In this document: positions 4,239 to 44,818 of the stretch, piece after piece | Numbering within the stretch: the first letter of the stretch is position 1 | How the letters are laid out: the number at the start of each line of letters is the position of its first letter | Source: Candidatus Korobacteraceae bacterium | GTDB taxonomy: Bacteria; Acidobacteriota; Terriglobia; Terriglobales; Acidobacteriaceae | Direction of reading: 5' to 3' | Length of the DNA stretch: 64,000 nucleotides | Assembly: GCA_049519595.1 (NCBI GenBank) | Contig: JBEKQP010000001.1 | Span: forward strand, 3,399 to 67,398 | Notes under the pieces: model-generated | Seen by the model: the letters and a program-made list of their open reading frames with translations, nothing else | Database searches by the model: none | What the model was told of the DNA's origin: nothing | Made by a program: the position numbers and the translations under genes

Positions 4239-6338
4239 ATGGCATTCATGAAGAGCAAGTATCAGCATAGCCGCGCTTGTGGCTCAAGGATGGCGCGTGC
4301 AACGGAGTGGGCTTGCCGCTACCGCGCAGTGACGCGTGCGGTTGTCATGGCGGCAATTCTTCTGGCGCTCGGTGTGAGTCTGCCGGTTGGCCGCGCCCAG
4401 GCCGCCGAAGCCTCGGGCCAAAACGATCTCTGCTTCGGCTGCCACAGTGATAAGAGCATGAGCACCAAGCGGGCCGGCCGGACGGTCTCGCTTTTTGTGG
4501 ATGGGAAGAAGTTTTCCGCTTCGGTGCACGGCAGCCTGGCTTGCACCAACTGCCATGCCGATCTCGAAGGCGCCGATATTCCACACTCCACGCCCAAAAA
4601 GGTGCAGTGTGGCACCTGCCATGCAGAGCAGCAGGGACTGCTTGCCAAGTCGCTGCACGGCAAAGCCGCTGCGCGCGGCGATGCGCTGGCTCCACGCTGC
4701 GTCAGTTGCCACGGCAATCATGACATCCTGCCGGTAAAGGACAAGAATTCGGCTGTGGCGCCGATGAAGGTGCCATTCGTCTGCGGAAGCTGTCATCGCG
4801 AGGGCACGCCGGTTCAGACGCAACGTCACATTGATCAGCACAACATCATCGAGAATTACACCGAAAGCATCCACGGCGAAGGATTGCTGAAGAAGGGTTT
4901 GATCGTCGCGGCCAACTGTGCTTCGTGTCACACCGCGCACTCGATTCTGCCGCACACCGATCCCAACTCCTCCATCGCCCGGCGTAACATCGCGGCGACC
5001 TGTACCAAGTGCCATGCCGAGATCGAAGCGGTACACCGCAAGACCATCCGCGGCGAACTGTGGGAAAAGGAAGCGAACGTTCTGCCCGCCTGCGTGGACT
5101 GCCACCAACCGCACAAAGTGCGAAATATCTTCTACAGCCAGGGCATGGCCGATGCCGATTGCATGCGTTGCCACAACAACCAGGCTTTGAAGTCGGCGGA
5201 TGGCCGCTCCATGTTCGTCAAGGCGGCGGAGCTCTCCGGTTCGCGTCATGTCAAGGTCGCTTGCAGCCAGTGCCACTCGGAGGTAAACGCCTCGAAGGTT
5301 CGTCCCTGCGAGACCATTACCAAGCCGGTGGATTGCAGCAAATGTCACGAAGCCGTGGGGCAACAATACCAGCGGAGCACTCACGGGCAACTATTTGCGA
5401 AGCAGGACCGTAATGCTCCGACCTGTCGGGAGTGCCATGGCACGCACGGCATTCTTGGCAAGCAGGATTCGCAGTCGGCGACATTTCCGCCTAATGTTCC
5501 AAATCTTTGTGCACGGTGCCATCGCGAAGGCCAGCGCGCCGCCGTGCGCTACACCGGCACGCAGCATGACATCACCACGCACTACAGCGAAAGCATTCAC
5601 GGCAAGGGTCTGCTGAAGAGCGGCCTGACCGTGACTGCCACTTGCTCCAGTTGCCACACCGCGCACGGCGAATTGCCGGCCAGCGATCCCGAGTCGACGG
5701 TCAATAGTAAGAATCTTCCGGCAACCTGCGGCAAGTGCCATCACGGCATCGAAGAGCAGTTTGTGCAGAGCGTTCACTCCGCGACGGTCACCAAGACCGA
5801 CAAGCCATTGCCGGTTTGCAGCGATTGCCATACCGCACACTCCATTCGTCGAGCCGATGAAGATGGGTTCAAGCTCGAAATCATGGACAGGTGCGGCAAG
5901 TGCCATGCCGAAATTGCCAAAACCTACTTCGATACCTATCACGGAAAGGTATCGCGGCTCGGCTACACCAAGACCGCCAAGTGTTACGACTGCCACGGCG
6001 CCCACGATATCCAGAAGGTGACGGACCCGAGGTCGCACCTGAGCCGTGCCAACGTAGTCGCCACTTGCCAGAAGTGCCACGTCGCCGCCACACGTCGCTT
6101 TGCCGGATATTTGACGCACGCAACGCATCACGACCCTAAAAAGTATCCCTTCTTGTTCTGGGTGTTCTGGGGCATGACGTCGCTGCTGGTTGGAACCTTT
6201 ATCGTCGGTGGCGTGCATACGCTGTTGTGGCTGCCACGTGCCTTCGAGATGCGCCGCGAGTTGCTCGCGGAGGAAGCTGCGCTCGAAGACAAGCCGGAAA
6301 GTCCCGCCGCGGAGGATAAGCAGAATGGTGACAAGTAG
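4239..6338 (+). CDS. multihaem cytochrome c, 19 CXXCH motifs, with a C-terminal membrane anchor
   Basis: 19 CXXCH counted, from CFGCH to CQKCH. Signal-like N-terminus (AVVMAAILLALGVSLPVGRAQA) and a single C-terminal TM (YPFLFWVFWGMTSLLVGTFIVGGV). Alternative starts are ATG 4248 and 4290. Confidence 0.9.
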   Translation: MAFMKSKYQHSRACGSRMARATEWACRYRAVTRAVVMAAILLALGVSLPVGRAQAAEASGQNDLCFGCHSDKSMSTKRAGRTVSLFVDGKKFSASVHGSLACTNCHADLEGADIPHSTPKKVQCGTCHAEQQGLLAKSLHGKAAARGDALAPRCVSCHGNHDILPVKDKNSAVAPMKVPFVCGSCHREGTPVQTQRHIDQHNIIENYTESIHGEGLLKKGLIVAANCASCHTAHSILPHTDPNSSIARRNIAATCTKCHAEIEAVHRKTIRGELWEKEANVLPACVDCHQPHKVRNIFYSQGMADADCMRCHNNQALKSADGRSMFVKAAELSGSRHVKVACSQCHSEVNASKVRPCETITKPVDCSKCHEAVGQQYQRSTHGQLFAKQDRNAPTCRECHGTHGILGKQDSQSATFPPNVPNLCARCHREGQRAAVRYTGTQHDITTHYSESIHGKGLLKSGLTVTATCSSCHTAHGELPASDPESTVNSKNLPATCGKCHHGIEEQFVQSVHSATVTKTDKPLPVCSDCHTAHSIRRADEDGFKLEIMDRCGKCHAEIAKTYFDTYHGKVSRLGYTKTAKCYDCHGAHDIQKVTDPRSHLSRANVVATCQKCHVAATRRFAGYLTHATHHDPKKYPFLFWVFWGMTSLLVGTFIVGGVHTLLWLPRAFEMRRELLAEEAALEDKPESPAAEDKQNGDK

Positions 6339-6339
6339 T

Positions 6340-7263
6340 ATGGACAAGCGCACAGAAGAACCGCCCGCGCCTGACAATTCGCGCAACAGCCCAACCGCGA
6401 ATGAACTCGCCACGTATATGAAACCCGCCGGTGCGGTGCGGCGTGAATTCGTCCGCTTCACCCGCCTGCAGCGCACGCTTCATGGGTGCATGGTCATCAG
6501 CTTCCTCAGCCTGGCCACGACCGGCTTGACGCTGAAGTTTTCTTACACCAGGTGGGCCTCTTTCGTGTCGCGACTGCTGGGCGGATTCCAAACCGCCGGT
6601 TATATCCACCGCTTCGCCGCGCTGGTGATGTTTGCCGCTTTCGTGACGCATCTCGTGGATCTCTGCAAGCTGAAAAAGAGGAAGTACGGCTCATGGCGAT
6701 CGTTGTTGTTCGGGCCAAATTCGATGATCCCGATGAAGCGCGATCTGGATGAGTTCATCGTCACCCTGAAGTGGTTCCTGCACCTTGGTCCGAAGCCGGA
6801 GTACGGGCGCTGGACATACTGGGAAAAATTCGACTATTTCGCCGTGTTCTGGGGGGTCTTCATCATCGGCTCCACCGGCCTGACTCTCTGGTTTCCGGTT
6901 TTCTTCACTCGCTTCCTGCCGGGAGCATTCATCAACGTAGCCACCATCATTCACAGCGACGAAGCGCTGCTTGCCACCGGATTCATATTCACCGTGCACT
7001 TCTTCAATACACATTTGCGGCCGGAGAAGTTCCCGATGGATACCACGGTTTTCACCGGGCGCATGGCGCTCGCGGAATTGAAACGGGACAAGCGCAAGGA
7101 ATACGACGCGCTGGTTGCGAGCGGCGAACTGGAGCAGCATCTGGCTGAGCCGCACCCGGAAATCGTCGTCAAAACCATCCGGGCCTTTGCCTGGGTTGCG
7201 CTCGCCATCGGTTTCAGCATCGTGGTGTGGATCGTGTATGCCATGCTGTTCGCCTATCGCTAG
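6340..7263 (+). CDS. FdnI/HydC-type cytochrome b membrane subunit
   Basis: In frame within ORF 6190..7263. ATG 6340 lies 1 nt after the stop of the 19-haem gene. TM helices with His ([38 protein letters not shown]) are colinear with the C-terminal domain of the 2055..4058 product. Confidence 0.85.
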
Positions 7264-39317: not shown

Positions 39318-40193
39318 GTGTCCCTCTCTCGTAACATAGGAACTACGCTGGAAATGATCAAGTGGGAGCACTCCGTGCTGACGCTTCCGTTTGGCCTTAC
39401 CGGCGCGGTGCTGGCGGCGCGCGGCCTTCCCAGCGTGCGACAGGCGGTCTGGCTGGTGGTGGCGCTGGTCTCCGCCCGGTCAGCGGCCATGGCCTTCAAC
39501 CGCCTGGCAGACGCGGCCATCGATGCCGAAAACCCGCGAACAGCATCGCGCGCCATTCCCGCCGGACTTCTCTCGCGGCAATTCGTCTTCTGGTTTGTCG
39601 TGGTGTTCTCGCTGATCCTGATTTTCGCAGCGAGGATGCTGAGCCAGCTTGCATTCTATCTCTCGCCCGTGGCGCTGGTCATCCTCTTCGGCTACTCATA
39701 CACCAAACGCTTCACGCGCTGGGCGCATGTGTTCCTGGGTCTGGCCATGGGGATCGCCCCAGCCGCCGCGTGGGTGGCGATCCGGGGCACGCTGGACCCG
39801 AAAATCTTCATCGTGACCGGCGCGGTCATGTTCTGGGGGGGCGGCTTCGATATTTTGTATAGCTGCCAGGACTACGAGCATGATTGCCGCGCCGGATTGT
39901 ACTCCGTCCCCCGGGCCTTTGGCATCGCGAGGGCGCTGGTGCTGGCGCGCATCTTCCACGTCGTCGCCTTTGGACTGTTTCTGTGGATGGTGTTCGCGTT
40001 TGCGCTAGGTCCGGTGGCACTGGTGGGAGTGCTGCTGGTGGGAGCGCTGCTGATTTATGAGCACTCGCTGGTGCGGGCGAACGACCTGAGCAGACTCAAC
40101 GCGGCGTTTTTCACCACCAACGGCTTTATTTCCATGCTGCTGCTGGGCTTTATTGCCGCCGATCTGCTGATCCGGCACGGCTCCAGCCTTTAG
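39318..40193 (+). CDS. UbiA-family aromatic prenyltransferase (likely menaquinone/futalosine-pathway prenyltransferase)
   Basis: NRLADAAIDAENPRT (NxxxDxxxD motif), a polytopic membrane profile, and adjacency to an Mqn-type radical SAM gene. Confidence 0.85.
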   Translation: MSLSRNIGTTLEMIKWEHSVLTLPFGLTGAVLAARGLPSVRQAVWLVVALVSARSAAMAFNRLADAAIDAENPRTASRAIPAGLLSRQFVFWFVVVFSLILIFAARMLSQLAFYLSPVALVILFGYSYTKRFTRWAHVFLGLAMGIAPAAAWVAIRGTLDPKIFIVTGAVMFWGGGFDILYSCQDYEHDCRAGLYSVPRAFGIARALVLARIFHVVAFGLFLWMVFAFALGPVALVGVLLVGALLIYEHSLVRANDLSRLNAAFFTTNGFISMLLLGFIAADLLIRHGSSL

Positions 40194-40224
40194 AAATGGT
40201 TCTTTGTGCGTTATCATCGAAAAG

Positions 40225-41367
40225 ATGTTTGGCTCGGAGAATAAACACCGCCCATTTCAAACAGACGATCCCAGGCTGCTGCCAATCGCCGACAAGGTGG
40301 CGCGGCAGGAACGTCTGACGTCTGAAGATGGCCTCGCCCTCTACCAGACGAGCGATATCCTCGCTGTCGGCTGGCTGGCTAACCAGGTGCGCGAACGCAT
40401 GCATGGCGATGTCGCGTACTTCAATGTCAACCGTCACATCAACCCAACCAACGTCTGCGTAGCGGCTTGCCGGCTGTGTGCCTTTGGCCGCAGAAAAGAC
40501 GTCCCCGGGGCCTACACAATGGCTTTGGAGGAGGCTTGGCGCGCGGCGGCTTCGGGCTACACGGAAGCGGTGACGGAGTTTCACATCGTCGGTGGCCTGC
40601 ACCCTGACTTGCCGCTAGAATATTTCTTAGATCTGTTTCGCGGTCTCAGGGAGCGGTTTCCGAAGGTGCACCTCAAGGCGTTCACCATGGTGGAGGTTGC
40701 GTTCTTCGCCAAGCGTGCCAAGCTCTCGATACGCGAGACGCTGCTGAAAATGAAAGAGGCAGGCGTGCAATCGATGCCCGGTGGAGGAGCGGAAATCTTC
40801 GCCGAACGGGTGCGCTCAATCATCTGCGACCACAAGATCGATGGAAACGAGTGGCTGGAAACGGCGCGTATCGCTCACGAGGTCGGGCTGAAGTCGAACG
40901 CCACCATGCTCTACGGGCACATCGAGAACGACGAGGACAGGGTGGATCATCTGGTGAAGCTGCGAGCCCTGCAGGACGAGACCCATGGGTTCCAGTGTTT
41001 TATTCCGCTCTCGTTCCATCCCGCCAATACCATGCTCGAACACCTGCCTACCACCACCGGCATGCAGGACATCAAGCAAATAGCGGTCTCGCGGTTGGTG
41101 CTGGACAACTTCCCGCACATCAAGTCCTACTGGCAAATGATGACTCCTAAGGTGGCACAGATTTCGCTGTGCTTTGGAGCTGACGATATCGATGGCACGG
41201 TGGTGGAAGAAAAGATCTACCACGACGCGGGAGCGACGACGCCCCAGGGTCTTCGCCGCCATGACTTGATCAGGTTGATCAAGGAAGCTGGGCGGGAGCC
41301 GTTGGAGCGAGACACGCTGTATCGGCGGGTGACTCGGGACGAAACTTCGTTCACGGTTGCCGTCTAG
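40225..41367 (+). CDS. futalosine-pathway radical SAM enzyme (MqnE/MqnC family; MqnE-like by eye)
   Basis: NVNRHINPTNVCVAACRLCAF (CxxxCxxC), HIVGGLHPD, and GGGAEIF. The ORF opens at TTG 40204. Confidence 0.8.
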   Translation: MFGSENKHRPFQTDDPRLLPIADKVARQERLTSEDGLALYQTSDILAVGWLANQVRERMHGDVAYFNVNRHINPTNVCVAACRLCAFGRRKDVPGAYTMALEEAWRAAASGYTEAVTEFHIVGGLHPDLPLEYFLDLFRGLRERFPKVHLKAFTMVEVAFFAKRAKLSIRETLLKMKEAGVQSMPGGGAEIFAERVRSIICDHKIDGNEWLETARIAHEVGLKSNATMLYGHIENDEDRVDHLVKLRALQDETHGFQCFIPLSFHPANTMLEHLPTTTGMQDIKQIAVSRLVLDNFPHIKSYWQMMTPKVAQISLCFGADDIDGTVVEEKIYHDAGATTPQGLRRHDLIRLIKEAGREPLERDTLYRRVTRDETSFTVAV

Positions 41368-41766
41368 GCGGGCTGCGGAAGGTAGTCTGTAGGGCCCAAC
41401 TCGAAGCTTCGCCATATCCGCTTCGCCTGCAGCTCCGCAAATATAGCCGCCAGCGAGAATGCATGCTCCCCACTCCGCAGGGGCTCTTTTGTGCCCTGGA
41501 AACGTTCCTAGGGGCGCGCTGATGGGGCGGTGGAGTAACGGGCCCTAGTTCGATCATACTTTCACCCCGAATGCTTGCAATTCTGATTGGCATTGCCGTC
41601 CGCAGGTCAGATTCCTGAGTGGCAGGCCCCGTGCAAGTCCGCGCCTGTTAGAGGGTTTCATTCATTGGTGAAGCAACTGTCTTTTGTCTGCACGCTTCAG
41701 TAACAGCAGGTGTACAATTCCCGGACACAGGGACTTTGGGAGCCACTCCTGTAACGGAGCCCATGA

Positions 41767-42813
41767 ATGAACGTCCATTTCACGTACAAACTTTCAAAAA
41801 CTGCCGATCTCGAAAATCTGATCACACAACGAATTGAAAAACTACAAAAGCGCCTTCAGGTGTTTCGGCCCGACATGATTTCGCTGTATGGTTCGGTCGA
41901 TGAGCATCCGAAGATGGGCTTCAACGTAGCGCTGAATCTGCGCTTGCCGTCCGGGCAACTGGCTGCGCGCGAAGTCGGCGACACGGCACCGAGCGCGATT
42001 AAGAGTTGCTTTGAGAGCCTGAAGGAGCAACTCGCGAAGCACATGGATCACCTGCGGGCCGCGTACAAGTGGCCACGCAGAAGGCGCCCGGCGGGACGTA
42101 CCCGCGCGGAAACGCAGGTGCCCTTCGAAGAGACACTTGCGTCCGTGCAGGCCGACGTCGTTTCCGCCCAGGATGTTAATGGCTGGCTGAATGCGAATCT
42201 CGACAAATTGCAGCGATTCGTCGAGCGGGAACTTCGCTACCGCAGCAACAGCGGGCAGCTGCGTGCGCAACAGATAACACCAGAGGAGGTAATCAGCGAG
42301 GCCATCGCGAACGCGCTGGACGGCCGCACGGAAAAACCCGAGAAATTTACGCTGGAGCCCTGGCTGTACTTTCTTTCACGGGCCGCCATCGATCGTCTGG
42401 CGGAGCAAGCTCGCGGCGCAGAGGGTGAAGTCGGATTGGACTCTAGCGTGCGGGCAGAGGAGGCCACCGGAAGCGACGAGGCCATGCTCCAGTTCCATCA
42501 TCCCGACGAAATGCTTACCAACGAGAATGTCATTCCCGATGGTGCAACCGCGACGCCGGAGGAGATCGCCGCTAGCGACGAAGTGATGGGAATGATCGAG
42601 ACGGTTTTGCGCAACGCGCATCACGAAGACCGGGAGGCTTTCATCCTGTTCACGATGGAAGGGTTCACCGTGCAGGAAATAGCCGTGATTACCGAGCGCA
42701 AGCCGGAAGAGGTCCGAACGTCGATTGCAAAAGCACGCGAACAACTGCGGAAAGCACTGCCGGTTGCCGAGCAGTTGAGGAACAAGCTGATCGAGCATTC
42801 CAAATCCGCCTAA
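41767..42813 (+). CDS. fusion protein: N-terminal RaiA/HPF (S30AE) ribosome-hibernation-factor domain plus C-terminal ECF-like sigma-70 regions 2 and 4
   Basis: The N-terminal 100 or so aa are colinear with HPF/YfiA (MNVHFTYK...ITQRIEKLQKRL...AIKSCFESLKEQLAKHMDHL). A basic linker KWPRRRRPAGRTR follows. Then come the region-2-like EEVISEAIANAL...PWLYFLSRAAIDRL and the region-4-like DREAFILFTMEGFTVQEIAVITERKPEEVRTSIAKAREQLRKAL. Confidence 0.8.
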   Translation: MNVHFTYKLSKTADLENLITQRIEKLQKRLQVFRPDMISLYGSVDEHPKMGFNVALNLRLPSGQLAAREVGDTAPSAIKSCFESLKEQLAKHMDHLRAAYKWPRRRRPAGRTRAETQVPFEETLASVQADVVSAQDVNGWLNANLDKLQRFVERELRYRSNSGQLRAQQITPEEVISEAIANALDGRTEKPEKFTLEPWLYFLSRAAIDRLAEQARGAEGEVGLDSSVRAEEATGSDEAMLQFHHPDEMLTNENVIPDGATATPEEIAASDEVMGMIETVLRNAHHEDREAFILFTMEGFTVQEIAVITERKPEEVRTSIAKAREQLRKALPVAEQLRNKLIEHSKSA

Positions 42814-42853
42814 ACAACCAGAACGAGTCCAAGAGTATTGAGGAGAGGTGTCG

Positions 42854-44014
42854 ATGATTACGCGAAGAGAAATCCGCGCTCTGGCCGAATTTCAATCGGC
42901 CCGAGGATGTGCAGTCACGTTTTACTATCAGCCCGACACACCGGCGAACCAGTCTCATCGGGAGGAAGCAATCCTGGTGAAGGATTTGGGGCGTGCGGCG
43001 CTTCGCGAAGCCGAGAAAGAGGGTCGCAACGATTATGCGCGCGCCGACCTGAGCCGAATTCTCGAGCTGGCGGAGCGTCTCCACGGGAATGCCGGGAAGG
43101 CGAAGGCGGTCTTTGCCGACTCGTCACAGAACGTCTGGCGTGAGTTTGACATTCCGGCATGGCTGGACAAGACGCGGGTGTTGATCGATCGTCGGTTTCA
43201 TCTCAGACCGCTGGCGCCGCTGCTGGAGGTGAATCCGCGGGTATGCGTTTGCGTCGTGGATCGCAGCAAAGCGCGACTTTTCGACTACCAGAATGAAATC
43301 TGCAAGGAGGTTATCGGATTTTTCACCGAGTCGCCGCGAGTGGGCGAGAGCACGGGAGGGGGAGGCTACGATGCCGGACACATCTCCCGGCGCGTTTCCG
43401 AATTTGCCAAGCAGCACTATAAAAAGGTGGCGGATACGATTCTGAAATTCTTTGAACGCGGCAGTTGCGAGAGTCTGGCGGTGGGAATCCGCGACGAGAA
43501 TTGGCTCGAATTCGAATCTGTGCTGCACCCTTACCTCAAAAAGAATCTGGTCGGCCGCTTCCATGCCGATCCCGATACAGCGACTCCTCAGCAACTGAAA
43601 GGAAAGCTCGAACGGCTGCTGGATGAGTACGAACTGAATCGGCACCGAGGGCTCGTCCGCGAGGTGCTGGGGGAAGCGCAGCGGAAGGCTCGCGGGGCAG
43701 TCGGCTTGCGGCGCGTGCTGCGCTCGCTGGAAACCGGAGAGATTCAGACACTGCTGCTGGGAGAGCACTTTCAGGCCCCTGGCGTCGAGTGCCGCCATTG
43801 TGGGCATGTAGACCTGAAAGTCTATCCCAACTGCGCAATCTGCTCGCATCCTGTCGCTGCCGTAGAGGATATCAGCGACGCGATCCTGGGAGCGGCACTG
43901 CGTGGCGGCATAGAGGTGGTCTACGTGAGAGACGATTCCGAATTGGAAGCGGCAGGAAATATCGCCGCGCTGCTACGCTTCCGGGCGGACCAACGGAGAG
44001 CGGTTGCCTCATAG
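42854..44014 (+). CDS. bacterial eRF1/Pelota-fold (archaeo-eukaryotic release-factor-like) protein with a Zn-ribbon insert
   Basis: Central domain VCVCVVDRSKARLF...ESTGGGGYDAGHISRRV. C-domain GAVGLRRVLRSLETGEIQTLLL...IEVVYVRDDSE...GNIAALLRF. CRHC-x10-CAIC is inserted in the C-domain. ATG 42854 follows GGAG (the ORF opens at GTG 42848). Confidence 0.8.
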   Translation: MITRREIRALAEFQSARGCAVTFYYQPDTPANQSHREEAILVKDLGRAALREAEKEGRNDYARADLSRILELAERLHGNAGKAKAVFADSSQNVWREFDIPAWLDKTRVLIDRRFHLRPLAPLLEVNPRVCVCVVDRSKARLFDYQNEICKEVIGFFTESPRVGESTGGGGYDAGHISRRVSEFAKQHYKKVADTILKFFERGSCESLAVGIRDENWLEFESVLHPYLKKNLVGRFHADPDTATPQQLKGKLERLLDEYELNRHRGLVREVLGEAQRKARGAVGLRRVLRSLETGEIQTLLLGEHFQAPGVECRHCGHVDLKVYPNCAICSHPVAAVEDISDAILGAALRGGIEVVYVRDDSELEAAGNIAALLRFRADQRRAVAS

Positions 44015-44045
44015 ACTTGTAGGGTGCGAAACATGGGCGTGGCCT

Positions 44046-44083
44046 TTTGGCTGCGCCTTTTTTGTTGTTTTTTACGGTTGCGC
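44046..44083 (+). terminator. strong rho-independent terminator after the eRF1-like gene
   Basis: ggcgtggcc-tttt-ggctgcgcc forms a 9-bp stem with two G-U pairs, followed by ttttttgttgtttttt. Confidence 0.8.
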
Positions 44084-44140: not shown

Positions 44141-44818
44141 ATGTCATTGCCGCAAGCATCACAGATACACTCCTTTTTCTCTTCCTTTGGCACTTTTTCG
44201 GTTGTGGCATTGAGTTCGGTGTTCTTTCTCGTCGATCCATTCGCCGCCATCCCGGCATTCCTGGCGATGACCGCGAACCATGAAGCTACGGTCAGACGCC
44301 GAATGGCGAAGCGCGCTGCCTGGACGTGTTTCGGAGTGCTGTCGGTGTTTGCATTGTCGGGCGGGATGATCTTCCGCATGTTTGGCATCACGCTGGCAGC
44401 TTTTGAAATCGCAGGTGGGTTGATTCTGTTGTTGATAGGGCTTGAGATGATTCAGGCGCGTCGCTCCGCCACCCAGGAACACACCAGTGAAACCCTGGAA
44501 GGAGCCATGAAGGAAGACATAGGAATTACACCGCTCGGCGTGCCGATGTTGGCCGGGCCGGGGGCAATTTCAACCGTGATGGTGCTGACCGGAGCTTCTC
44601 CGCGTTGGCTTCACATCTCGGTGGTGTGGTTGGCCATCGTGGTGACGTCCTTCGCCTCTTACGTGATCCTGGCGGGTGCGGACCGCATTCGCCGACGGCT
44701 TGGCGAAACGGGAATCCGCATCATGATGCGCATGATGGGCTTGCTGCTGACCGCCATCGCAGTCCAGTTCGTGATCAACGGGTTGGTTTTGATTGGCGTG
44801 ATTCAGGGTGGTGGGTAA
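44141..44818 (+). CDS. MarC-family (UPF0056) membrane protein
   Basis: FFLVDPFAAIPAFLAMT...FGITLAAFEIAGGLILLLIGLEMI. Confidence 0.85.
   Translation: MSLPQASQIHSFFSSFGTFSVVALSSVFFLVDPFAAIPAFLAMTANHEATVRRRMAKRAAWTCFGVLSVFALSGGMIFRMFGITLAAFEIAGGLILLLIGLEMIQARRSATQEHTSETLEGAMKEDIGITPLGVPMLAGPGAISTVMVLTGASPRWLHISVVWLAIVVTSFASYVILAGADRIRRRLGETGIRIMMRMMGLLLTAIAVQFVINGLVLIGVIQGGG

Follow-up and report, generated by a model that had tools for sequence, protein, structure and literature searches.

Organization of the locus

The stretch of DNA analyzed here, a window of 64,000 nucleotides (nt) from the genome of a Candidatus Korobacteraceae bacterium (assembly GCA_049519595.1, contig JBEKQP010000001.1, positions 3,399 to 67,398 of the forward strand), carries a pair of adjacent genes whose products combine a ribosome-hibernation domain, a sigma-factor-like unit and a release-factor-like fold. 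Gene 1 encodes a chimera in which an HPF/RaiA domain is followed by a sigma-like half, and gene 2 encodes a Balon-like protein of the baeRF_family10 (Table 1). Both open reading frames (ORFs) lie on the plus strand, and two start codons come into question for gene 2: the ORF list has a GTG at 42848, and an ATG at 42854 sits 8 nt 3' of a GAGGAG sequence. Taking this ATG as the start, the gap between the two genes is 40 nt, which agrees with the spacing given in the original prediction, made from the sequence alone, for two co-directional genes. That prediction had also placed about 400 bp of non-coding DNA ahead of the pair, and we found 399 bp between the stop codon of the upstream gene mqnE (41367) and the ATG of gene 1. 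The strong terminator that it had put at 44046..44083 is real as a hairpin, with a stem at 44035-44058, a T-run to ~44073, a folding energy of -19.3 kcal/mol and a z score of -4.5 (none of 200 shuffled sequences folded equally well), but its true position is ~10 nt further upstream. With its own predicted promoter and terminator the pair is a self-contained bicistron, as had been proposed. Within the 64-kb window no paralog was found for the S30AE, sigma-like or baeRF genes. A role in anti-phage defence was considered and rejected, PADLOC having given no significant match.

Table 1. Position of the two genes, their domains and the associated signals in the window (residue numbers are those of the respective protein).
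Feature	Position	Strand	Basis
Conserved promoter region of the unit	41673..41718	+	Alignment/registration of upstream regions
5' untranslated region with Shine-Dalgarno GGAG (41756-41759) and an upstream CUCC (41746-41749) able to pair	41719..41766	+	Sequence reading
Gene 1, HPF-sigma chimera, 348 residues	41767..42813	+	ORF, Pfam and NCBIfam matches, homologs
HPF/RaiA (S30AE) domain, residues 1-99	41767..42063	+	PF02482, AlphaFold2, Foldseek
Disordered basic linker, residues 100-130, motifs W-P-R-R-R-R and QVPFEET	42064..42156	+	AlphaFold2, alignment
Sigma2-like three-helix region, residues 131-218	42157..42420	+	AlphaFold2 helices 134-161, 172-184, 193-218
Acidic sigma2-sigma4 linker, residues 219-263, motif F-QPDE-L--ED--PD-----PEE	42421..42555	+	AlphaFold2, alignment
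Sigma4 helix-turn-helix (residues 264-330) and C-terminal helix (residues 335-347)	42556..42810	+	Pfam, PDB profile matches
Intergenic spacer, 40 nt, with gene 2 Shine-Dalgarno GAGGAG (42840-42845)	42814..42853	+	Sequence reading
Gene 2, Balon-like protein of baeRF_family10, 386 residues, three aeRF1-like domains	42854..44014	+	PF18854, Foldseek
GGQ-position loop, GGGGY in the window	43355..43369	+	Alignment to eRF1
Four-Cys zinc-ribbon insert in the C-terminal domain (C313, C316, C327, C330)	43790..43843	+	Conservation
Intrinsic terminator, 10-bp G+C-rich stem, 4-nt loop, then T-run	44035..44073	+	Folding against shuffles

Gene 1 joins an HPF domain to a sigma-like half

The N-terminal part of the gene 1 protein matches the Pfam family Ribosomal_S30AE (PF02482) over residues 9-96 with 32.0 bits (cutoff 23.7), and the same family is matched by all 26 members of the gene 1 family examined. 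An AlphaFold2 model built on 26 homologs (mean predicted local distance difference test score, pLDDT, 73.6; predicted template-modelling score, pTM, 0.32) gives for residues 2-99 the beta-alpha-beta-beta-beta-alpha fold of this family with a pLDDT of ~80-90. In a Foldseek search against the PDB this domain superposes on E. coli HPF (2rql) with a template-modelling (TM) score of 0.85 and a root-mean-square deviation of 1.9 Å, and it also matches YfiA and many ribosome-bound HPFs. Invariant basic residues are found on both helices of the domain (K8, K11, K25, R29, K79, H92 and R97). The dimerisation domain of long HPFs (Ribosom_S30AE_C) gave no Pfam match in gene 1 at E ≤ 1. The HPF domain is followed by a basic linker with a pLDDT below 50 at residues 103-127, in which W102, P103, F120, E121 and T123 are invariant in the acidobacterial members and a W.R..R pattern is kept family-wide.

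The C-terminal half of the protein resembles sigma factors of the ECF type. Sigma70_r4_2 matches residues 288-327 with 30.1 bits (cutoff 25.7), and the PhyR_sigma-like family scores as well (31.4 bits, cutoff 27) and is matched by 26/26 members. The S30AE and sigma4 assignments of gene 1 are therefore solid. When the family profile was compared with PDB sequences, ECF sigma factors of the AlgU/sigmaH/sigmaE type were retrieved with E ~1e-6 and PhyR with 4e-6. Residues R289, F292, L294, E298-T301, R324, R328 and K329 of sigma4 are invariant. The original prediction had assigned both sigma regions 2 and 4; region 4 stood, whereas region 2 was missed by Pfam and is seen in the predicted structure. 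Sigma70_r2 matched only 2 of the 26 members (best E 0.011), and TIGR02937, the ECF model of NCBIfam, aligns residues 145-331 with 38.9 bits, under its cutoff of 42.9. The putative sigma region 2 is thus supported by the modelled fold only, in which the whole sigma half aligns with chains of ECF sigmaH, sigmaE, sigmaL and EcfG over ~200 columns at a Foldseek probability of 1.00. The global TM score of these alignments is low because the sigma2 and sigma4 domains are flexibly linked. Two motifs of the sigma2-like region, 'V.DEV...AL' and 'WL..LA', are kept family-wide, at the positions of the core-binding and 2.3/2.4 helices of ECF sigma factors. The residues after 'WL..LA' and those of the sigma4 recognition helix are not conserved across the whole family.

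The two sigma-like domains are separated by an acidic linker that is predicted to be disordered (pLDDT below 50 at residues 220-263) and that is among the best-conserved segments across 50 representatives at 22-52% identity. D237, D247, D258, P264 and E265 of this region are invariant in the acidobacterial members. The linker is a possible analogue of the sigma finger or, as another possibility, a mimic of rRNA that masks the basic HPF surface of its own protein. With regard to possible partners, no anti-sigma gene was recognised beside the fusion in the window and in ~110 loci, where small unannotated ORFs were not searched exhaustively; the neighbours identified were mqnE or glpX, the Balon-like gene, marC, an asparaginase gene or a convergent sigma70-family gene. 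Neither a receiver domain in gene 1 nor a NepR-like or EcfG partner gene at the locus was found.

Gene 2 encodes a Balon-like protein

Gene 2 matches the Pfam family baeRF_family10 (PF18854) with 61.2 bits (cutoff 27.1), which places it in the baeRF-1 clade. A profile of the gene 2 family (32 homologs) retrieved as best PDB sequences the Balon proteins MSMEG_1130 and Rv2629, with an E value of 5e-7 over almost the full length. In addition, the best Foldseek match of the AlphaFold2 model of gene 2 (mean pLDDT 73.9, pTM 0.49) is the ribosome-bound Msmeg1130 (8v9l_z), with an E value of 1.7e-19 and TM scores of 0.73-0.76; the scores were 0.67-0.70 for Rv2629, 0.63-0.70 for the Balon of Psychrobacter urativorans and ~0.5 for aRF1/eRF1. 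The domain arrangement is closer to Balon than to aRF1, eRF1 or Pelota in these superpositions, and only 15-20% of the structurally aligned residues are identical between gene 2 and the Balon proteins. The release-factor fold that had been proposed for gene 2 is therefore present, although not as the central and C-terminal domains alone, since all three domains are found.

The gene 2 family has G-W-G-G-[Y/F], without a glutamine, at the position of the GGQ motif of eRF1. G168, G171 and Y172 are conserved in at least 90% of the sequences, and a few members have F in place of the tyrosine. On reading of the translation, the NIKS motif is absent from the N-terminal domain. Furthermore, no His-Pro dipeptide was seen in residues 1-125; the conserved loop of the N-terminal domain, Q26-P27..P30..H35 (QP..P..SHR), could not be matched residue by residue with the HP motif that the Balon of P. 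urativorans carries. The C-terminal domain carries a CxxC...CxxC insert, all four cysteines of which are invariant in the 32 gene 2 sequences. This zinc ribbon would occupy the same site as the beta-hairpin by which Balon binds EF-Tu, and the gene 2 family may keep here the ancestral zinc-ribbon state of aeRF1.

Conservation of the pair

More than 100 full-length homologs of gene 1 were found at 52-94% identity. A search led by gene 1 gave 31 genome loci, almost all labelled as metagenome-assembled genomes of Acidobacteriota, Korobacteraceae or Terriglobales and two under other labels that are probably the result of mis-binning. Gene 2 lies directly 3' of gene 1 in 14 of the 31 loci. In the other 17, gene 1 is followed by a convergent gene for a sigma70-family protein of ~265-310 residues. 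A search led by gene 2 gave 82 loci at 48-89% identity, and in all 75 of those with readable upstream DNA an HPF-sigma gene lies directly 5' of gene 2, with a gap of 23-123 nt. The flanks of these 75 pairs differ (mqnE, glpX, asparaginase). Of the 17 solo loci, 14 yielded full-length HPF-sigma proteins, and in a neighbour-joining tree of 85 proteins these 14 form one clade that is nested among the paired ones, which indicates that pairing is ancestral and was lost once. The 75/75 linkage together with the nested solo clade argues strongly, on comparative grounds, that the two genes work as one functional module, and it bears out the conservation of gene neighbourhood on which the original prediction depended. 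The unit is carried vertically in Acidobacteriota (Korobacteraceae/Terriglobales).

Beyond this group the family is small. A phmmer search of 1.84 billion representative proteins gave 798 matches at E ≤ 1e-3, and 372 clusters (50% identity) at E ≤ 1e-10; many of the matches are full length at 22-52% identity. Such a low number of matches indicates a small and distinct family whose sigma half stands well apart from the mainstream of ECF sigma factors. A search with the gene 2 profile returned, as its best 120 matches, sequences that all belong to the same tight family, and no distant family-10 members were added.

Some side observations were made on these loci. The convergent gene of the solo loci (L012-L015, L017-L025, L027, L028, L030 and L031; about 6070-7050, minus strand) encodes a protein that looks by eye like a group-3 sigma factor of the FliA/SigB type (motif LIQAGSIGLIDAARRF), and no homolog of it is present in the window. 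Gene 1 or gene 2 was split into several tblastn pieces in the metagenome-assembled contigs L011, L027, L028, L029 and L030, most likely by frameshift errors of long-read assemblies and not because they are pseudogenes. Lastly, L009, L014, P0031, P0035, P0138 and P0278 are labelled as metagenome-assembled genomes of Clostridia, Saccharimonadales or Verrucomicrobiae; their flanks match acidobacterial loci (mqnE at 76-84% identity), and these odd labels look like mis-binning.

Distant relatives on plasmids

Proteins with the HPF-sigma architecture were also found on plasmids at 24-29% identity (tblastn), with both S30AE and sigma4 above their cutoffs. Among the best 25 of the 34 matching records, the hosts include Paraburkholderia, Brucella anthropi, Paracoccus yeei, Shinella and Methylorubrum. 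These distant relatives (L032, L033, L034, L117 and L119) sit in heat and proteotoxic-stress islands of proteobacterial plasmids, surrounded by genes for Hsp20, GroEL, DnaK, FtsH, ClpK and HdeD. The Paraburkholderia island has three Hsp20 genes with groES-groEL-dnaK, and Brucella anthropi pOANT01, Paracoccus yeei and Shinella share the order MarR-FtsH-ClpK-like AAA ATPase-[HPF-sigma]-HdeD-...-YfdX1/2-TrxC-cation antiporter. No Balon-like gene was found among the annotated neighbours of the plasmid relatives, and the one hypothetical protein that was scanned against Pfam gave no match. The E. coli plasmid pEc78 was not among the 25 best of the 34 records, and its chimera may be a separate lineage. 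A review of the tLST/LHR islands does not mention an HPF-sigma gene.

Promoter and leader of the unit

We compared the upstream regions of 31 genome loci and ~59 metagenome loci after alignment or registration, and the sequence ahead of gene 1 proved to be conserved in all clades. In the window, the conserved region comprises a GCAAC box (41673-41677), the hexamer ACGCTT at the -35 position (41692-41697), a 15-nt spacer and the -10 hexamer TACAAT (41713-41718). In the relatives the -35-position hexamer is TTGCTT, TTGCCT or TTGACA, and the pattern TTG(C/A)(T/C)(T/A)-15 nt-TA(C/G/A)AAT lies 56-75 nt 5' of the ATG in nearly all registrable loci (105 nt in L007). By its consensus, the promoter of the pair reads as sigmaA-type with a short spacer. 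The GCAAC box, 16 nt ahead of a GCYTC, had seemed promising among the first 31 loci as a sign of an ECF-type autoregulatory promoter. In the wider set it is present in some clades and missing from several, and the window shows no enrichment of GCAAC-N16-GCYTC (4 occurrences, with 1.7 expected). This element was therefore rejected as evidence of autoregulation.

The leaders of three sequence-divergent clades show a possible inner hairpin and an outer pairing over the Shine-Dalgarno sequence (e.g. AGCUUC...GAGGCU), a pattern which hints at translational control or an RNA thermometer and which we note as an unproven lead. Covariation in the leaders of one clade was not significant (77% of cells paired, with covariation no better than in shuffles), RNAalifold gave no consensus structure for the leaders, the 5' untranslated region of the window folded no better than shuffles (z = -0.14) and Rfam had no match to the 399-bp leader. 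With all these results negative, a structured RNA in this leader was set aside as unproven.

Relation to known systems

Both proteins of the unit have relatives that bind ribosomes. Balon, a baeRF-1 protein, has been seen by cryo-electron microscopy in the ribosomal A site together with RaiA and EF-Tu, its mycobacterial homologs inhibit translation in vitro, and cells from which it has been deleted recover less well from long-term stationary phase (Helena-Bueno et al., Nature 2024, PMC10901736). In the same work, Balon was found to lack the GGQ and NIKS motifs of aeRF1 and to bind EF-Tu(GDP) through a beta-hairpin of the C-terminal domain, and its gene most often adjoins raiA, with alternative sigma70 factors, MarC, HdeD and Hsp20 among its other neighbours. 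These data support the earlier assumption that both folds dock at the ribosome in their canonical settings, and they overturn the statement that came with it, namely that no experimental work was known on baeRF proteins. The locus studied here resembles the Balon-RaiA pair in that a three-domain protein of the aeRF1 fold without GGQ and NIKS, which also sets gene 2 apart from classical aeRF1 and Pelota, is encoded beside a gene of the HPF/RaiA family, and a MarC gene follows downstream, MarC and sigma70-family genes being among the reported Balon neighbours. It differs in that the HPF partner is fused to a sigma-like unit instead of being a plain RaiA, and in that gene 2 belongs to baeRF_family10, stays under the curated Balon-type NCBIfam cutoffs, carries a four-Cys zinc ribbon and shows no HP dipeptide in the N-terminal domain.

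Burroughs and Aravind (2019, PMC6514570) defined the baeRF-1 families, reported their persistent operonic link with HPF and proposed that these proteins, in concert with HPF, block the A site without catalysis. Gene 2 falls into their family 10, and its operonic link to HPF is exactly as described. At the GGQ position it has GG[Y/F], in contrast to the conserved glutamine that they reported for family 10. They also described at the site of the zinc ribbon of aeRF1/baeRF-1 proteins either a ribbon or a remnant of two beta-strands, most baeRF-1 families having the remnant. In the accessible part of that paper no sigma fusion is mentioned. Such fusions appear in a preprint of November 2025 (bioRxiv 10.1101/2025.11.04.686544), which catalogues, without a functional test, HPF chimeras with Csp, 'SigE' or CBS domains; the chimeric hpf genes often adjoin Balon genes and occur on plasmids, and the fused domains are seen as replacing the lost C-terminal dimerisation domain. 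Gene 1 is alike in having an HPF N-domain without the long-HPF dimerisation domain and a sigma-E-like fusion, and both the Balon adjacency and the plasmid occurrence were reproduced in our data. The pairing that the original prediction had thought undescribed is thus already known, as is the fusion, both having been noted only in catalogues. What is new here is the 75/75 linkage in differing contexts, the single-loss clade and the relatives in plasmid heat-resistance islands; the 75/75 pairing, the single-loss phylogeny, the promoter, the acidic linker and the membership in an acidobacterial baeRF family 10 are not found in the preprint.

The sigma half can be compared with ECF sigma factors that bear extensions, such as ECF41 and ECF42 (C-terminal) or ECF121 BldN (N-terminal), with which it shares a sigma2-linker-sigma4 core, a fused domain and the lack of an adjacent anti-sigma gene (Casas-Pastor et al. 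2021, PMC7826278). In gene 1, by contrast, the N-terminal extension is a complete, putatively ribosome-binding domain, Sigma70_r2 fails and the linker is unusually long (~45 residues) and acidic. The word stem 'ribosom' is absent from the main text of that ECF classification. With the sigma-like domain of PhyR, gene 1 shares the match to PhyR_sigma-like above its cutoff and a degenerate sigma2; it differs from PhyR in having no receiver domain and no NepR/EcfG partner genes at the locus. The EcfG paralogs of M. extorquens were rejected as a parallel, their N-terminal extensions being NepR-like and not HPF.

Function of the unit

We consider that the unit is probably (at a probability of roughly 0.6) a two-protein ribosome-hibernation module of the HPF/RaiA plus Balon type. 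This reading is supported by the HPF fold of gene 1, the Balon-like nature of gene 2 with its loss of GGQ and NIKS, the fact that three 'ribosome hibernation factor' families are, besides aRF1, the only NCBIfam matches of gene 2, the strict pairing of the two genes, the published work on Balon and the baeRF-1 families, and the stress islands that host the plasmid relatives. Under stress, transcription of the pair would start at the sigmaA-like promoter of the unit, the HPF domain at the N terminus of the gene 1 protein would bind the decoding region and the mRNA-tRNA channel of the 30S subunit, and the Balon-like protein would enter the A site and reach the peptidyl-transferase centre, where it would release no peptide. 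The unit of sigma2, acidic linker and sigma4, standing in place of the long-HPF dimerisation domain, could then form a protein-interaction or regulatory appendage that extends off the silenced 30S subunit. Most plausibly it would still bind the RNA polymerase core or a sigma partner, which would couple the occupancy of idle ribosomes to the availability of sigma.

Several points weigh against this interpretation. The ribosome binding of both proteins, their co-occupancy and any transcriptional role are what we infer, and the AlphaFold2 models of both genes are of medium quality (mean pLDDT ~74). By sequence profile, the Balon proteins are only marginally ahead of Pelota and eRF1 as matches of gene 2, and the scores of gene 2 on three NCBIfam 'ribosome hibernation factor' families, which bear the names of AOC03_06830 (P. 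urativorans Balon), Rv2629 and MSMEG_1130, are 50.9 bits (cutoff 330), 41.8 bits (cutoff 320) and 41.7 bits (cutoff 480); its only other NCBIfam match is TIGR03676 (aRF1), with 39 bits against a cutoff of 235. In addition, the zinc ribbon of gene 2 could mean that its delivery or its partner differs from that of Balon, and family 10 was flagged in PMC6514570 as possibly catalytic, a peptidyl hydrolase, on the basis of a conserved glutamine. The hibernation model also leaves unexplained why a sigma-like unit, and not some other domain, has been strictly retained. The catalytic point can be extended to the whole pair, gene 2 being then a catalytically active, alternative release or rescue factor by which stalled ribosomes are freed, and gene 1 its regulator. 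Apart from the glutamine reported for family 10, the zinc ribbon of classical aeRF1 that gene 2 keeps would fit such a role, but the sequence at the GGQ position is GG[Y/F], with Y172 conserved in at least 90% of members, NIKS is absent and gene 2 superposes better on Balon than on aRF1, eRF1 or Pelota. The GG[Y/F] makes a catalytic release factor unlikely, and we regard the rescue pair as highly improbable.

Another explanation, which makes specific the link between ribosome state and transcription that the original prediction suggested, is that gene 1 is a working ECF-type sigma factor, whose HPF domain would park the protein on the vacant decoding sites of 30S subunits. The balance of idle and translating ribosomes would then act as the anti-sigma, the Balon-like partner would shift the equilibrium, and release or capture of sigma would reprogram transcription at the entry into or exit from dormancy. 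Sigma4 is above its Pfam cutoff, the two-domain fold agrees with that of ECF sigmaH, sigmaE and sigmaL as present in initiation complexes, and the two sigma2-like motifs resemble the core-binding and 2.3-2.4 helices of ECF sigma factors. The putative -35 recognition-helix residues R317, S319, R324, R328 and K329 are conserved in the acidobacterial family, the acidic linker is kept down to 22% identity as expected for a functional sigma finger, and the plasmid relatives lie in multi-gene stress islands, where a dedicated sigma factor might be of use. Furthermore, no anti-sigma gene was recognised, and where an ECF sigma factor has none, its control usually falls to fused domains (PMC7826278). 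Against a working sigma factor stand the failure of Sigma70_r2 and TIGR02937 to recognise the family, its distance from mainstream ECFs, the lack of family-wide conservation at the DNA-reading positions (after 'WL..LA' and in the sigma4 recognition helix) and the promoters of the unit, whose universal elements are sigmaA-like and point neither to autoregulation nor to a regulon; PhyR, moreover, is an example of this fold serving as a mimic that is not a sigma factor. We therefore hold this alternative to be possible but rather doubtful. Its central element, that ribosomes set the availability of the gene 1 sigma, which would be released to RNA polymerase when mRNA and tRNA come to occupy the ribosomes, or the other way round, with the Balon-like partner either stabilising or competing with the vacant-30S-bound state of gene 1, is likewise advanced only tentatively.

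The example of PhyR leads to another explanation, in which the sigma half is a decoy that binds neither RNA polymerase nor DNA but an anti-sigma factor or another protein, for which the Balon-like partner and ribosomal proteins are candidates; alternatively, it could be an oligomerisation or tethering unit that replaces the long-HPF dimerisation domain. The match to PhyR_sigma-like, which scores as well as that to Sigma70_r4_2 and is found in all 26 members, and the PhyR structures among the best PDB profile matches are consistent with a decoy, as is the degenerate sequence of sigma2, a feature that the sigma2 of PhyR shares. The treatment of fused domains as replacements of the dimerisation domain in 10.1101/2025.11.04.686544 agrees with the tethering variant. 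A decoy, however, would have no need of the basic recognition-helix residues that the acidobacterial family conserves, it leaves the conserved ~45-residue acidic linker unexplained, and neither a receiver domain nor a nearby NepR-like gene was found. For these reasons we think a sigma mimic or partner switch unlikely.

Whatever the role of the sigma half, a hibernation domain fused to a complete sigma-like unit has been retained from the chromosomes of Acidobacteriota, where it is firmly linked to a Balon-like protein of a baeRF-1 family, to the heat-resistance plasmids of proteobacteria. If the sigma half were active, the chimera would tie the initiation of transcription directly and physically to ribosome occupancy, and a ribosome-gated sigma factor, if true, would provide a link at the protein level between translational status and promoter choice. 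If it were inactive, it would exemplify a sigma fold taken over by a hibernation factor as a structural extension. Dormancy plays a central part in the ecology of Acidobacteriota, which grow slowly and abound in soil.

Neighbouring genes

The gene upstream of the pair encodes the aminofutalosine synthase MqnE (40204-41367; TIGR03700, 510 bits). It is preceded by an ORF at 39318-40193 that looks by eye like a UbiA-type prenyltransferase, and the ORFs at 39318-41367 correspond to the futalosine route to menaquinone. mqnE lies directly 5' of the HPF-sigma gene in 30 of the 31 genome loci; this neighbourhood is very stable, and no functional link is obvious. Downstream, past the terminator, a gene for a membrane protein of the MarC/NAAT family occupies 44141-44818; in the closest relatives the MarC gene lies ~115-870 nt 3' of gene 2, and it is farther off in L009 and L010.

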